DNA of 10,106 nt. It comes from Candidatus Jordarchaeia archaeon. GTDB lineage: Archaea; Asgardarchaeota; Jordiarchaeia; Jordiarchaeales; Jordiarchaeaceae. The stretch lies in contig JAHQXB010000141.1 in the NCBI GenBank assembly GCA_029856435.1, forward strand, positions 1 to 10,106. The letters run 5' to 3'. The notes beneath the pieces were generated by a model that was not told where the DNA came from, ran no database searches, and worked only from the letters and a program-made list of their open reading frames with translations. Positions within the stretch are counted from its first letter, which is position 1. Each line of letters starts with the position of its first letter. This document shows, piece by piece, positions 299 through 6,476 of this stretch. The translations under genes were made by a program, and so were the position numbers.

Positions 299-1546
299 TC
301 AGCCCTTCACAACGCCCAGAGGACGCAGACGCGCAACCAGAGAAGCAATACCTGCATCATGCGACGCCTTAGCCACCTCATCAACATTCTTGTAAGCCTC
401 AGGAGCCTCCTCAGCCACAACTTCAATACTCGCAGCCCTAACAAGAATCCCCGCAGACAAAAGCTTACCCTTCACACTCTCACCCCTAAAACTCCTAATC
501 GCCTCATTCCTACTCATCACCCTACCCGCTCCGTGAGCGGTTGATCCGAAGCTGAGTTCCATGGCTTCTTTTCGCCCTCTGAGGATGTAGCTGGCGGTTC
601 CCATTGTTCCGGGTATGATGACTGGTTGTCCTATGTTTTTGTATTTTTGTGGTAGTTCGGGGTGTTCTGGGGGGAATGCGCGTGTGGCGCCTTTTCTGTG
701 TACGTAGACTGTGCTGGTTTCGCCGTTGACTTTGTGTTTTTCGATTTTGGCTATGTTATGTGCTACGTCGTAGATTAGGTGCATTTCAAGGTCTTCTGCC
801 GGTGTTCCGTATACTTTTTGGAAGGATTCCCGTACCCAGTGGGTTATGCTTTGTCTGTTGGCCCAAGCGAAGTTGGCTGCTGCGGCCATGGCTGCTAGGT
901 AGTCTTGGCCTTCGGGGCTTTTTCCGGGTGCTGCTGCTAGTTCTCTGTCTGGTAGTTCGATTCCGTACTTTTTTGTGGCTCTTTCCATTATTCGTAGGTA
1001 GTCGGAGCATACTTGGTGTCCTAGTCCTCTTGAGCCTGTGTGTATCATGACTGTGGCCTGATTCTCTCTTAGTCCGTAGATTTTGGCTGCTTCTTGATCG
1101 AAGATTTTTTCGACGTATTGGATTTCGAGGAAGTGGTTGCCGGCTCCTAGTGTTCCTACCTGTGCGACGCCTCTGTCTTTTGCTTTGGTTGATACTTTTG
1201 TTGGGTCAGCTTCTTTTAGGCTTCCGTTTGCTTCGCAGTATAGGGCGTCTTCTTCCCAGCCGAAACCCTTTTCGATGGACCATTTGACGCCTTCGGCGAG
1301 TATGCTGTCTAATTCTGCCATTGAGAGCTTAATTTTTCTTTTGGAGCCTAAACCGCTGGGAACGTTATCGAATATTTCTTGTGTTAGGACTTTTATTTTT
1401 TCTTCAACGTCTTTTCTTTCTAGGTTGGTTGTGATTATTCTAACACCGCAGTTGATGTCGTATCCTACGCCTCCCGGGCTTAAGACTCCTTCTTCATAAT
1501 CGGTTGCAGCCACTCCGCCTATTGGAAATCCGTAGCCTTGATGTGC
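299..1546 (-). CDS. rtcB: RtcB 3'-phosphate/5'-OH RNA (tRNA-splicing) ligase, exon 2 (415 aa). Predicted gene is join(1577..1792,299..1546); the ORF-track 418-aa ORF starts at an AUG inside the intron
   Basis: All expected RtcB motifs are intact: AHQGYGFPIGG, GGVGYDINCG (Asp/Cys metal ligands), GTLGAGNHFLE, IHTGSRG, DVAHNIAK, HRKGAT, PGTMG, STAHGAGR (guanylylated His motif), EEAPEAYK and the C-terminal LRPLGVVKG. Confidence 0.96.
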   Translation of the reverse strand, partial: AHQGYGFPIGGVAATDYEEGVLSPGGVGYDINCGVRIITTNLERKDVEEKIKVLTQEIFDNVPSGLGSKRKIKLSMAELDSILAEGVKWSIEKGFGWEEDALYCEANGSLKEADPTKVSTKAKDRGVAQVGTLGAGNHFLEIQYVEKIFDQEAAKIYGLRENQATVMIHTGSRGLGHQVCSDYLRIMERATKKYGIELPDRELAAAPGKSPEGQDYLAAMAAAANFAWANRQSITHWVRESFQKVYGTPAEDLEMHLIYDVAHNIAKIEKHKVNGETSTVYVHRKGATRAFPPEHPELPQKYKNIGQPVIIPGTMGTASYILRGRKEAMELSFGSTAHGAGRVMSRNEAIRSFRGESVKGKLLSAGILVRAASIEVVAEEAPEAYKNVDEVAKASHDAGIASLVARLRPLGVVKG

Positions 1547-1576
1547 TTCCCGCATGGGAGGCGATTCTCTTCATGT
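1547..1576 (-). other. 30-nt archaeal BHB-type pre-mRNA intron in rtcB (ACAUGAAGAGAAUCGCCUCCCAUGCGGGAA)
   Basis: Central 4-bp helix CCCG(1582-1579)/CGGG(1552-1549); 3-nt bulges ACA(1578-1576) and AAG(1548-1546); intron helix CAUG(1575-1572)/CAUG(1556-1553); flanking exon-exon helix. Cleavage after the 2nd nt of each bulge removes exactly 30 nt, including the UGA, and restores PD|AH. Confidence 0.9.
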
Positions 1577-1792
1577 GTCGGGCAAGGTTACGGAGAACTT
1601 TTTTATTCCAGGTAGGCTGGTTACGTTTGCCGCTTGGATTAGGGTTTGGTCTTTGTGTATATCTTTCATGAGGTACTCATTTGCGATGATTCTTGCGGGC
1701 ACCCTCATGTAGGGGCGGAAATCTTTGGGTATTTCCCAAATGTTTTTGCTGATTTGTTTGAGAGGTATGTTTTTTGTGCTCAAATTGTTCAC
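1577..1792 (-). CDS. rtcB: RtcB ligase, exon 1 (N-terminal ~69-72 aa). Start is GTG 1792 or, more likely, TTG 1783
   Basis: Translation IWEIPKDFRPYMRVPARIIAN...TLIQAANVTSLPGIKKFSVTLPD resembles the archaeal RtcB N-terminus and ends at the conserved PD. GGAGGTGA at 1796-1789 lies 5 nt upstream of TTG 1783. Confidence 0.92.
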
Positions 1793-4401: not shown

Positions 4402-4773
4402 ATGCCCGGATTTAAATTGGTGATTTCCGATCCAGAAAAGGGCCGTACGGTACAGGTTGATGTTGATGAAGCAAAGTCTCGTGCCTTGTTAGGGGCTCGT
4501 ATTGGTCAGAAGATTGATGGTGGACCTCTGGGTTTTAGTGGATATGAATTTTTGCTCACCGGTGGAAGCGATAAAGATGGTTTTCCCATGCGAAAAGGGG
4601 TGCATGGTCCGGTGAGAAAAAGGATTCTTATTGGTAGCAAACCAGGATATCATCCGCCCTATAAGGGCCAGCGTAGAATGAAGATGGTTAGAGGGGACAC
4701 GATTTCTGAGGATATAGCCCAGGTAAACTTGAAGATAGTTAAAAGGGGTGCAAAGGAAATCTTTGAAGGGTAA
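4402..4773 (+). CDS. rps6e: 30S ribosomal protein S6e (123 aa)
   Basis: FKLVISDP, TGGSDKDGFPMRKGV, RRMKMVRGDTIS and IAQVNLKIV motifs. GGAGGT at 4388-4393 is 8 nt before ATG 4402. Adjacency to infB is typical of archaea. Confidence 0.96.
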   Translation: MPGFKLVISDPEKGRTVQVDVDEAKSRALLGARIGQKIDGGPLGFSGYEFLLTGGSDKDGFPMRKGVHGPVRKRILIGSKPGYHPPYKGQRRMKMVRGDTISEDIAQVNLKIVKRGAKEIFEG

Positions 4774-4855
4774 GAGGCACCCCAAAGTATAACCTTCAAA
4801 TTGTTGAATTTCTCTTCATAAATTTTTTAGCCTTTAGGGTGGGGAGGAACTCTTA

Positions 4856-5371
4856 ATGAGTGTTTACAAGGAGGGAAGTTATGGTGGGGAAAGAAGATTT
4901 GCTTGTGACGCTATGCTAGGGCGTCTTGCACGTTGGCTTCGTCTTCTTGGATATTATACTTTTTATTCTCCCAAAATTAGGGATGATGAGCTTTTAGAGG
5001 TCTGTATTCGGGAGGATTTGAACCTCCTCACTAGGGATGTGGACTTTTTTAAGCGAGCGACTTCGTGCGGTTTAAAAGTTAAACTCATTCAGAAAAATTC
5101 CTTTGAGGAACAATTTTTCGAAGTTGTGGGTTTTTTTGGTTTAAATTTGAGCATTTCCCCTGAGAACTCCCGCTGCCCAGAATGCAATGGTCTAATTCAG
5201 AGTGTGGATAGAGAGGAGATAAAAAATAAGGTTTCAGCTAATACTTTGGATTCCTATGATGCCTTTTGGATTTGCACAAACTGCGGCCAAGTTTATTGGC
5301 GTGGACGCATGTGGCTGTCAATGACTCGAATTGTTGAAAGAACTAAGGAAAAACTAAAAAGGGGAGTTTGA
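4856..5371 (+). CDS. Mut7-C RNase-domain (PIN-like, DUF82/MJ1477-like family) protein with C-terminal Zn ribbon
   Basis: FACDAMLGRLARWLRLLGY, LLTRD, RCPECNG and FWICTNCGQVYWRG. Confidence 0.88.
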   Translation: MSVYKEGSYGGERRFACDAMLGRLARWLRLLGYYTFYSPKIRDDELLEVCIREDLNLLTRDVDFFKRATSCGLKVKLIQKNSFEEQFFEVVGFFGLNLSISPENSRCPECNGLIQSVDREEIKNKVSANTLDSYDAFWICTNCGQVYWRGRMWLSMTRIVERTKEKLKRGV

Positions 5372-5861
5372 TGTTCCAAGCCTTTTAATATCTCAACATT
5401 GCGAAATGTGCTTATTTTCTATCTCCTATGCTATAAAAAAGTAGTAAGAAACAATTCCAAATAAAAAGAAGAGAAGGGGAGGAAGCGAAAAGTACTAGAG
5501 CAAAACTAAACAGTGCAGGAAAGTGACCTTCAATTTCCAGTAGCGCCACCGCTTTATTTGTGGAGAATTATTGTTTCGAAGCTATCTTTGTTCTATAGCG
5601 TGTCTATAATGGAAGCGTAAACTTGGCATTCTTCTATCCCGATTCATGATTTGAGAAACTAAATAAGGAAAAAACGGTTAATTGAACACTAAAAAGGGAG
5701 GAAGTAGTGAAGGTAATCAGTTTTAAAAAGTTTATTTTTATCATTTTTCAAGGTTGGCTGTTTAAGTATTAAGGAAAAACTTTTCTATCTGTTTTACCAA
5801 TGAAACTTAAGTAAATTGCTTATGTAGTTTTTGGTTTTCTGTTTTAAGAGGACTGGTAGGA

Positions 5862-6476
5862 ATGACTCTTGAAGAAGGACAATTCTTGGTTAAACTGGCA
5901 CGTAGAGCCTTCGAAACTTACGTCAAAGAAAATGTAAAGATTGAGGTTCCTAAAGACACCCCAGCAAAGCTGCTTGAAAAGAGTGGTGTTTTTGTAACTC
6001 TCAGCACGGTTACCCCAACAGGAGAAAAACGTCTACGGGGATGTATAGGCTTTCCCCTGCCACACTTCCCTTTAGCCCAAGCAACCATCGAGGCGGCTAT
6101 TAGTTCTGCAACCATGGATCCCAGGTTTCCTCCTGTCACGGAAAGTGAGATAGATAATATAGTAGTTGAGGTCACCGTTTTGACGCCGCCAAACCTAATA
6201 GAAGTGGAGGATCCAAAGGAGTATCCTTCCAAGATTAAGGTGGGAAAACACGGTTTAATCATAGAAAGGGGACCCTACAAAGGTTTGCTCCTGCCCCAAG
6301 TTCCTGTAGACTGGAATTGGGACGAAGAAGAATTTCTTTGTGAATGCTGCATTAAGGCGGGTCTCTCGCCAGATGCGTGGTGTGACAAAAAAACAAAAGT
6401 CTACTGTTTTGAGGGAATCATCTATGAAGAAGAGAGCCCCCGTGGCAAGATAGTAGAGCGCCCTCTGATAAAATAG
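5862..6476 (+). CDS. AMMECR1-domain protein (TIGR00296-like)
   Basis: GVFVTL, LRGCIG, AISSATMDPRFPPV, VEVTVLTPP, GLLLPQV and CIKAGL motifs. Confidence 0.94.
   Translation: MTLEEGQFLVKLARRAFETYVKENVKIEVPKDTPAKLLEKSGVFVTLSTVTPTGEKRLRGCIGFPLPHFPLAQATIEAAISSATMDPRFPPVTESEIDNIVVEVTVLTPPNLIEVEDPKEYPSKIKVGKHGLIIERGPYKGLLLPQVPVDWNWDEEEFLCECCIKAGLSPDAWCDKKTKVYCFEGIIYEEESPRGKIVERPLIK

Follow-up and report, generated by a model that had tools for sequence, protein, structure and literature searches.

Introduction

The closest described counterpart of the element analyzed here is the short EndA-type intron within the coding sequence of the crenarchaeal cbf5 pre-mRNA, which belongs to the bulge-helix-bulge (BHB) class (Watanabe 2002; Yokobori 2009, PMC2738675). 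In 2020 it was the only BHB intron of a coding sequence that had been reported, besides the intron in the 5'-untranslated region of Haloferax HVO_1309 described in the same work (PMC7714728). We analyzed a stretch of 10,106 nt from Candidatus Jordarchaeia archaeon (contig JAHQXB010000141.1 of assembly GCA_029856435.1, forward strand; hereafter the window), in which rtcB, the gene of the RNA ligase RtcB, is interrupted by 30 nt at a conserved motif. The window comprises the entire contig C93 of a metagenome-assembled genome (MAG) of 3.54 Mb, which consists of 181 contigs and is 97.8% complete; the host is an Asgard archaeon of the Freyarchaeia/Jordarchaeia. Like the cbf5 intron, the rtcB insert is short, of the EndA type, conserved within one clade and absent from the sister clades. 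It differs from the cbf5 case in gene, site and phylum; moreover, the product of the interrupted gene is the very ligase that would finish the reaction, and splicing is a prediction here. We consider it probable (about 0.7) that the insert is a BHB intron of the rtcB pre-mRNA that is cut by EndA and joined by RtcB, and that the resulting autocatalytic dependency is an incidental by-product.

Non-canonical and multiple introns are also known from the tRNA genes of Freyarchaeia and Atabeyarchaeia (PMC11291895) and of Thermoproteales. These introns have the relaxed BHB form that is also predicted for rtcB, and those of the Freyarchaeia come from the same lineage with the same presumed enzymes, but they are located in tRNA genes, whereas the rtcB intron is located in a protein gene. 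In this lineage 92-95% of the tRNA genes contain introns, often several of them and at unusual positions (PMC11291895), and such an intron-rich tRNA background explains how an intron in rtcB could arise. The same paper mentions neither RtcB nor introns in protein genes, protein genes are not covered in a 2026 preprint on the tRNA introns of Asgard archaea, and no paper linking rtcB with an intron was found in the literature library searched.

Two other systems are related in a different way. In the metazoan splicing of XBP1 an endonuclease likewise cuts the RNA to 2',3'-cyclic phosphate and 5'-OH ends, RtcB rejoins the exons and the outcome is a changed reading frame. In contrast to the situation in rtcB, the endonuclease is IRE1 and not EndA, the stem-loops are of another kind, the reaction is a stress-regulated switch and the target encodes a transcription factor and not the ligase; by analogy the resemblance would be one of chemistry and not of intron homology. 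Inteins of RtcB are, like the putative intron, selfish insertions in conserved motifs of the same gene. They differ in that they are removed at the protein level, comprise hundreds of residues and need no RtcB, and they are seen in other Asgard archaea, Hadesarchaea and DPANN.

Results

Organization of the interrupted rtcB gene

The rtcB gene is located on the minus strand of the window from 1792 to 299 and consists of two open frames, 1571-1801 and 299-1570, which share one register and are parted by one TGA. A six-frame profile search of the genome yielded a single RtcB match, which extends from profile position 1 to 426 over both exons and has the one TGA inside. The match of the downstream frame to Pfam RtcB (PF01139) is above the curated cut-off (2e-171, 571 bits for exon 2 alone). 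The upstream frame has ...SVTLPD at its end; ten additional codons follow before AHQGYGFPIGG continues the sequence in the downstream frame. A comparison with intronless relatives, in which LPD(A/G)HQGYG is unbroken, located an insert of 30 nt at positions 1547-1576, between LPD and AHQGYG.

Exon 1 (1577-1792, minus strand) comprises about 70-72 codons, and the match to the RtcB hidden Markov model (HMM) runs through it. Two alternative start codons are available, a GTG at 1792 and a TTG at 1783. The TTG is the more likely start, because a Shine-Dalgarno-like site, GGAGGTGA at 1796-1789, precedes it by 5 nt. Exon 2 (299-1546, minus strand) consists of 415 codons and the stop codon at 299-301 and contains all metal-binding and guanylylation motifs. 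It could be aligned end to end with RtcB from Pyrococcus horikoshii (PH1602, 1uc2) from His67 onward. The motifs DINC, GNHF, HTGSRG, AHN and HGAGR are all intact, and the positions of the metal-binding Asp, Cys and His residues and of the guanylylated His all lie within identical motifs; we take the corresponding residues of PH1602 to be D95, C98, H203, H234, H329 and H404.

Distribution of the interruption

All six species of the genus are interrupted at the same site, by a TGA, by a TAA or, in G005, by a frameshift due to an insert of 29 nt. The sample also included 35 further genomes of this order and phylum, and their rtcB is uninterrupted, with a length of about 1308 nt compared with 1335 nt here. 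Among 251 Asgard genomes a longer, stop-containing match occurred only in this genus, among the 150 matches listed; the interruption was not seen among the matches listed from the 245 other Asgard genomes, with 110 weaker matches lying outside the list. A pattern scan of metagenomes and look-ups of database proteins added seven further alleles, which gives a total of 13 distinct alleles. The insert has 30 nt in 11 of them, 29 nt in G005 and 28 nt in L129, and insertions or deletions occur only in the apical loop of the predicted hairpin described below. The recurrence of the interruption at one site in the six species and in the seven further alleles is far more than chance.

Independent assemblies from NCBI, JGI, ENA and Logan share the interruption, including a closed genome of 3.58 Mb (CP147778). 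In a set of 5.8 billion proteins, the relatives with at least 83% identity are calls of 418-419 amino acids (aa) that start inside the insert; the exceptions are two fragments (340 and 394 aa) and one read-through call of 441 aa, and none is full length. The first full-length RtcB proteins (483-484 aa) belong to Jordarchaeales and show 69% identity.

For the joined exons, dN/dS (the ratio of nonsynonymous to synonymous change) is 0.03-0.06 in every pair of alleles, and the synonymous differences (pS) reach 0.7-0.8 between deep branches. By this measure both exons are under strong purifying selection, even where synonymous sites are saturated. The low dN/dS despite the high pS shows that rtcB has long remained functional with the insert in place. 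These values also bear on the idea that rtcB is a pseudogene or that the interruption is an artefact of assembly or sequencing, as the in-frame stop and the origin from a MAG contig could suggest. Its probability is negligible, since the same feature is present in the independent assemblies and in the closed genome, since dN/dS is low, and since a lineage in which nearly all tRNAs require splicing has no other rtcB.

A further explanation does without splicing. The gene could be expressed as two polypeptides, an N-terminal peptide and a product of 418 aa restarted inside the insert, or as one polypeptide by read-through or hopping of the ribosome. An in-frame ATG (1555-1553) is indeed located five codons past the TGA, and gene callers use such starts. 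However, this restart codon is not conserved: besides some alleles with ATG, two have GTG, several have CTG or TTG and one has CCG. The N-terminal segment that would be lost, with HMM positions 1-17 and beyond, belongs to the conserved RtcB fold, and a matching pair of take-off and landing codons for hopping is missing. Because inserts of 28, 29 and 30 nt coexist, the insert cannot be translated, and recoding of the TGA, read-through and hopping were all rejected on account of the 28- and 29-nt alleles. Expression without splicing is therefore highly improbable.

Several other rtcB genes showed features that have to be kept apart from this interruption. The rtcB gene of G099, a member of another Asgard family (C65 293-1591), has one in-frame TGA and no extra length; a point nonsense mutation, recoding or an error of sequencing could account for this TGA. 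The interrupted rtcB motifs at L063, L085 and L107 were considered as introns and rejected, as they are inteins. Inteins were also observed in the Asgard genomes G013 and G034 and, in a sample of one DPANN class, in G290, G293, G311 and G274. They form open frames of about 1000 aa or more, with junctions (marked by a slash here and below) at the catalytic Cys (...HN/C) or at GYGFP/IGG. In 61 genomes of this DPANN class rtcB contained no stops, only inteins.

Predicted structure of the intron

The RNA of the insert and its flanks is predicted to fold into a relaxed BHB structure. The predicted intron (1547-1576, minus strand) starts with ACAUGA and ends with CGGGAA, and its in-frame UGA is located at 1573-1571. 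In the fold, a central helix of 4 bp is formed by CCCG of exon 1 (1579-1582) and CGGG of the late intron (1549-1552). Three C-G pairs of this helix are invariant in all 13 alleles; the fourth pair is G-C in seven and G.A in six. The cut predicted for the 5' bulge AC/A (1576-1578) follows position 1577, the last of the Asp codon; that for the 3' bulge AA/G (1546-1548) follows 1547, and exon 2 would then begin at 1546 with GCA (Ala). Twelve alleles have AAG as 3' bulge, and one has AUG. Between the bulges, the intron itself forms a hairpin (1553-1575), in which CAUG (1575-1572) pairs with CAUG (1556-1553), followed by an inner GAG/CUC stem and the apical loop. In the hairpin, some alleles differ at both partners of the pairs 23-41 (UA/UG/GC) and 24-40 (GC/AU).

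The canonical rule for tRNA introns of archaea places an EndA cut in each bulge, behind its second base. Cuts by this rule restore LPD/AHQGYG exactly in all 13 alleles, those with 28 and 29 nt included, and a shift of the cuts by one base leads to Thr, Ser or Pro where the relatives have Ala or Gly. Eight alleles were folded individually and gave the same architecture each time, with z-scores from -2.9 to -5.7. In the alignment of the 13 alleles 87% of the cells pair, compared with 38-45% with slid partners, and three pairs change on both sides. The divergence of the insert is 0.10-0.27, compared with a pS of 0.17-0.24, in close species, and between deep branches the insert evolves more slowly than synonymous sites; such a pattern is as expected for a non-coding element constrained by its structure.

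The two exons can additionally pair with each other. In this clamp helix (1530-1593, minus strand) 11 nt of exon 1 (1593-1583) face 11 nt of exon 2 (1540-1530), and 10 or 11 of the 11 positions pair in the intron-bearing alleles. The clamp covaries at two synonymous sites (CG/UA/UG); one of the pairs is CG in nine alleles, UA in three and UG in one. At the same positions a median of 7 out of 11 pair in 99 intronless genes, and in two intronless sister-order genes of the Jordarchaeales (L010 and L012) the stretches are already complementary at 10 out of 11. As pure evidence of selection for splicing the exon-exon helix is weakened by these two genes, and the clamp is partly a consequence of the conserved coding sequence. 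Its complementarity, as a possible pre-existing proto-splice helix, may have made the site prone to holding an intron.

Splicing machinery encoded in the genome

The gene inventory of the genome comprises one rtcB, two endA paralogues and one archease. Both endA genes are complete, the archease gene is intact, and no interruptions are present in them. EndA alpha (C104) aligns over its full length to the catalytic alpha subunit of the heterotetramer from Aeropyrum pernix (3p1z_B, 3e-45). Included in the alignment are the specific loop of the Crenarchaea type with its Lys (..KPK..) and the motifs of the Tyr/His/Lys triad. The second paralogue (C64) is without the 9-residue loop and has a Thr in place of the catalytic His, as would a structural beta subunit. 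Judged by these features, EndA is an (alpha-beta)2 enzyme with a broad-specificity loop. An (alpha-beta)2 EndA with an L1 loop has been assigned to Asgard and TACK archaea and linked to the cleavage of relaxed motifs (PMC5829648).

Besides RtcB, the profile searches recognized no Rnl-type or other RNA ligase in the genome. Two matches to RNA_ligase (PF09414) were rejected as RNA ligases, as they are three-domain ATP-dependent DNA ligases. C64 encodes one LigT-like 2H protein (PF13563, 2',5' RNA ligase-like); the genes of this phosphoesterase, of a HycI hydrogenase protease and of EndA beta lie side by side at 4671-6357 of this contig. The established ligase of archaea for 2',3'-cyclic phosphate and 5'-OH ends is RtcB, which is also the sole ligase for such ends that could be recognized in this genome. 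With a single rtcB and no other recognizable RNA ligase, making RtcB would need RtcB, and functional RtcB most likely requires EndA together with pre-existing RtcB.

This dependency would not be closed if the intron were real and its exons were joined by another enzyme, either the LigT-like protein or an unrecognized ligase. The PF13563 gene near endA beta could be taken as a candidate, and in a MAG of 97.8% completeness a gene could be missing. The result of the ligase search and the single rtcB in all six genomes of the genus stand against this explanation. Moreover, enzymes of the LigT type act as cyclic phosphodiesterases and are known to form 2'-5' bonds only in vitro. Joining by another enzyme is therefore very unlikely.

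Other interrupted genes and the proposed regulatory role

Interruptions of the BHB type, with lengths of 28-32 nt, were also identified in other protein genes of the genome. In ahcY (C81 48230-48259, plus strand) a clean BHB element of 30 nt contains one TAA, and its removal restores TKxxFDN. In tyrS (C81 near 49800, plus strand) three stops lie inside a BHB element of 30 nt in the region of the HIGH motif, and removal restores EPSG..HLG. The pcm gene (C109 12093-12124, minus strand) consists of two profile-contiguous halves around a predicted BHB element of 32 nt, with GQTISAP/HMV restored. The cbf5 gene (C73 22783-22813, minus strand) is interrupted at GTL/DP, with GHAGTL/DP restored, and has a further TGA inside the TruB_N match. 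A genome scan revealed further plausible interruptions of this type at C24 15011-15038 and C136 1384-1411, both on the minus strand, and in each case removal restores a conserved motif.

Four genome-wide BHB scans were performed with shifted-partner decoys: a strict BHB motif combined with joining of open reading frames (ORFs), relaxed flanks, a filter for coding potential and constraints on the bulge consensus. The scans recovered rtcB, ahcY, cbf5, pcm and two more plausible cases. For tRNA genes, ARAGORN found just three, one of them dubious, in the whole genome, which implies non-canonical or multiple introns in nearly every tRNA gene.

The original prediction had envisaged a regulatory circuit in which the intron acts as positive feedback, as a sensor or as a link to the status of GTP, Mn and archease. 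This part of the proposal did not find support in our data, since ahcY, tyrS, pcm, cbf5 and the tRNA genes are similarly interrupted. As a rival explanation, a loop selected as a regulatory device, by positive feedback or as a sensor competing with pre-tRNA and pre-mRNA substrates, is unlikely. It would agree with an intron held at one site through saturating synonymous divergence and with a ligase gene that is the only interrupted one among the splicing genes. It would also agree with the in-frame stop located one codon into the intron in 12 of the 13 alleles, due to which an unspliced mRNA would give only a peptide of 70-odd residues. However, this early stop belongs to the CAUG/CAUA helix and may be a by-product of it, and retention of the same kind of intron in unrelated housekeeping genes needs no special function. 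The production of RtcB already depends on RtcB via tRNA splicing, and positive feedback on a limiting ligase is destabilizing and not homeostatic. The loop has a positive sign, a lack of ligase leading to still less of it, which is wrong for homeostasis, and as a means of control it would worsen a ligase shortage instead of correcting it. A more elaborate version, in which the rtcB intron is a selected autocatalytic switch with the clamp as preferred landing site, and in which splicing capacity gates the ligase for a bistable or growth-coupled control of tRNA and mRNA splicing, is quite unlikely.

Composition of the rtcB region

The rtcB region of the window also shows an uneven composition. 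At the synonymous third positions of exon 2, G and T account for 3-23% over the first approximately 320 codons and for 60% and then 93% in the last 80. The plus strand is rich in A and C left of about position 540; the adjoining stretch of about 4.5 kb on the right (541 to about 5000) is rich in G and T, with a keto skew of +0.2 to +0.4, whatever the orientation of the genes. The flip near 540 occurs at the same place in G001, G003, G004 and L129, is weak in G005, L116, L128 and L134, and was not observed in intronless relatives. A replication origin as its cause is unsupported; the skew is a local patch with a length of a few kb and not an arm switch of the whole genome, and other patches are located nearby. 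The A/C-rich tract coincides exactly with an antisense ORF of 82 codons on the plus strand (296-544), which is most likely not a gene but a by-product of the scarcity of T and G, which leaves few stop codons.

Discussion

The comparison of 13 alleles, with its variation in insert length, conserved fold and purifying selection on the exons, indicates that the rtcB intron is real, as the original prediction had presupposed. The host proved to be an Asgard archaeon, as had been considered, and the claim that the catalytic motifs of exon 2 are intact and the gene is under selection agrees with the alignment to 1uc2 and with the dN/dS values. The proposed dependence of RtcB synthesis on EndA and pre-existing RtcB is most likely correct, with rtcB present in a single copy; the survey of the genome for the type of endA, for archease and for a second ligase led to an (alpha-beta)2 endA, one archease, a single rtcB and no other RNA ligase.

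From these results we infer the following course of events. The (alpha-beta)2 EndA would cut the rtcB pre-mRNA after ...GAC and after ...GGGAA and leave 2',3'-cyclic phosphate and 5'-OH ends, and RtcB would rejoin the exons to a message that encodes LPDAHQGYG. Each new RtcB molecule would then need pre-existing RtcB inherited by the cell, which amounts to a direct autocatalytic dependency. The intron was presumably fixed in the ancestor of the Freyarchaeia genus, during a lineage-wide spread of BHB elements into tRNA and protein genes. Its splicing is probably constitutive, as the machinery should be abundant when nearly every tRNA needs splicing.

We favor a neutral or selfish origin of the intron and constitutive splicing over regulation. 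Similar introns in other genes and in nearly all tRNA genes suggest that rtcB is one of many targets of an intron expansion. Since nearly all tRNA genes are broken by introns, RtcB would be indispensable for the translation of every protein, itself included. The synthesis of RtcB is thus already tied to RtcB through tRNA splicing, and the intron in the mRNA adds a direct loop to this indirect one.

Several observations weigh against the interpretation as a BHB intron with an incidental loop. The predicted fold of minimum free energy has a 3' bulge of 8 nt (1548-1541), and a strict 3' bulge of 3 nt leaves an outer helix of just 1-2 bp. In six of the 13 alleles G.A replaces the fourth central pair, and the allele G003 is almost without a helix beside the 5' bulge. 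Because of the 8-nt bulge, the G.A alleles and the loss of the helix in G003 we describe the element, as modelled, as a relaxed BHB, in which the 4-bp helix and the 5' bulge of 3 nt are present and the 3' bulge deviates. Cleavage would accordingly depend on the relaxed-substrate EndA of this lineage. The covariation is modest, many pairs being invariant and the exon helix being partly dictated by the coding sequence. None of the four genome-wide BHB scans showed a clear excess over the decoys; adjacent co-directional genes and long off-frame ORFs in this skewed genome swamped the signal. Among close relatives in the set of 5.8 billion proteins neither an intronless allele nor a product resembling a spliced cDNA was found. 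Finally, to call the loop a by-product is an argument from parsimony.

Splicing of archaeal coding sequences by the tRNA machinery has been described for one gene, cbf5. Here the interrupted gene is that of the ligase itself, in a close prokaryotic relative of eukaryotes and alongside similar interruptions of other housekeeping genes. If splicing is confirmed, at least one Asgard lineage would routinely splice mRNA by proteins alone. Gene callers would then systematically truncate such genes, as illustrated by the close RtcB relatives in the databases, which are called at about 418 aa and never at the full length of about 487 residues. Under the same condition, RtcB of these archaea would be a minimal, naturally occurring example of an enzyme that must be active for its own synthesis.

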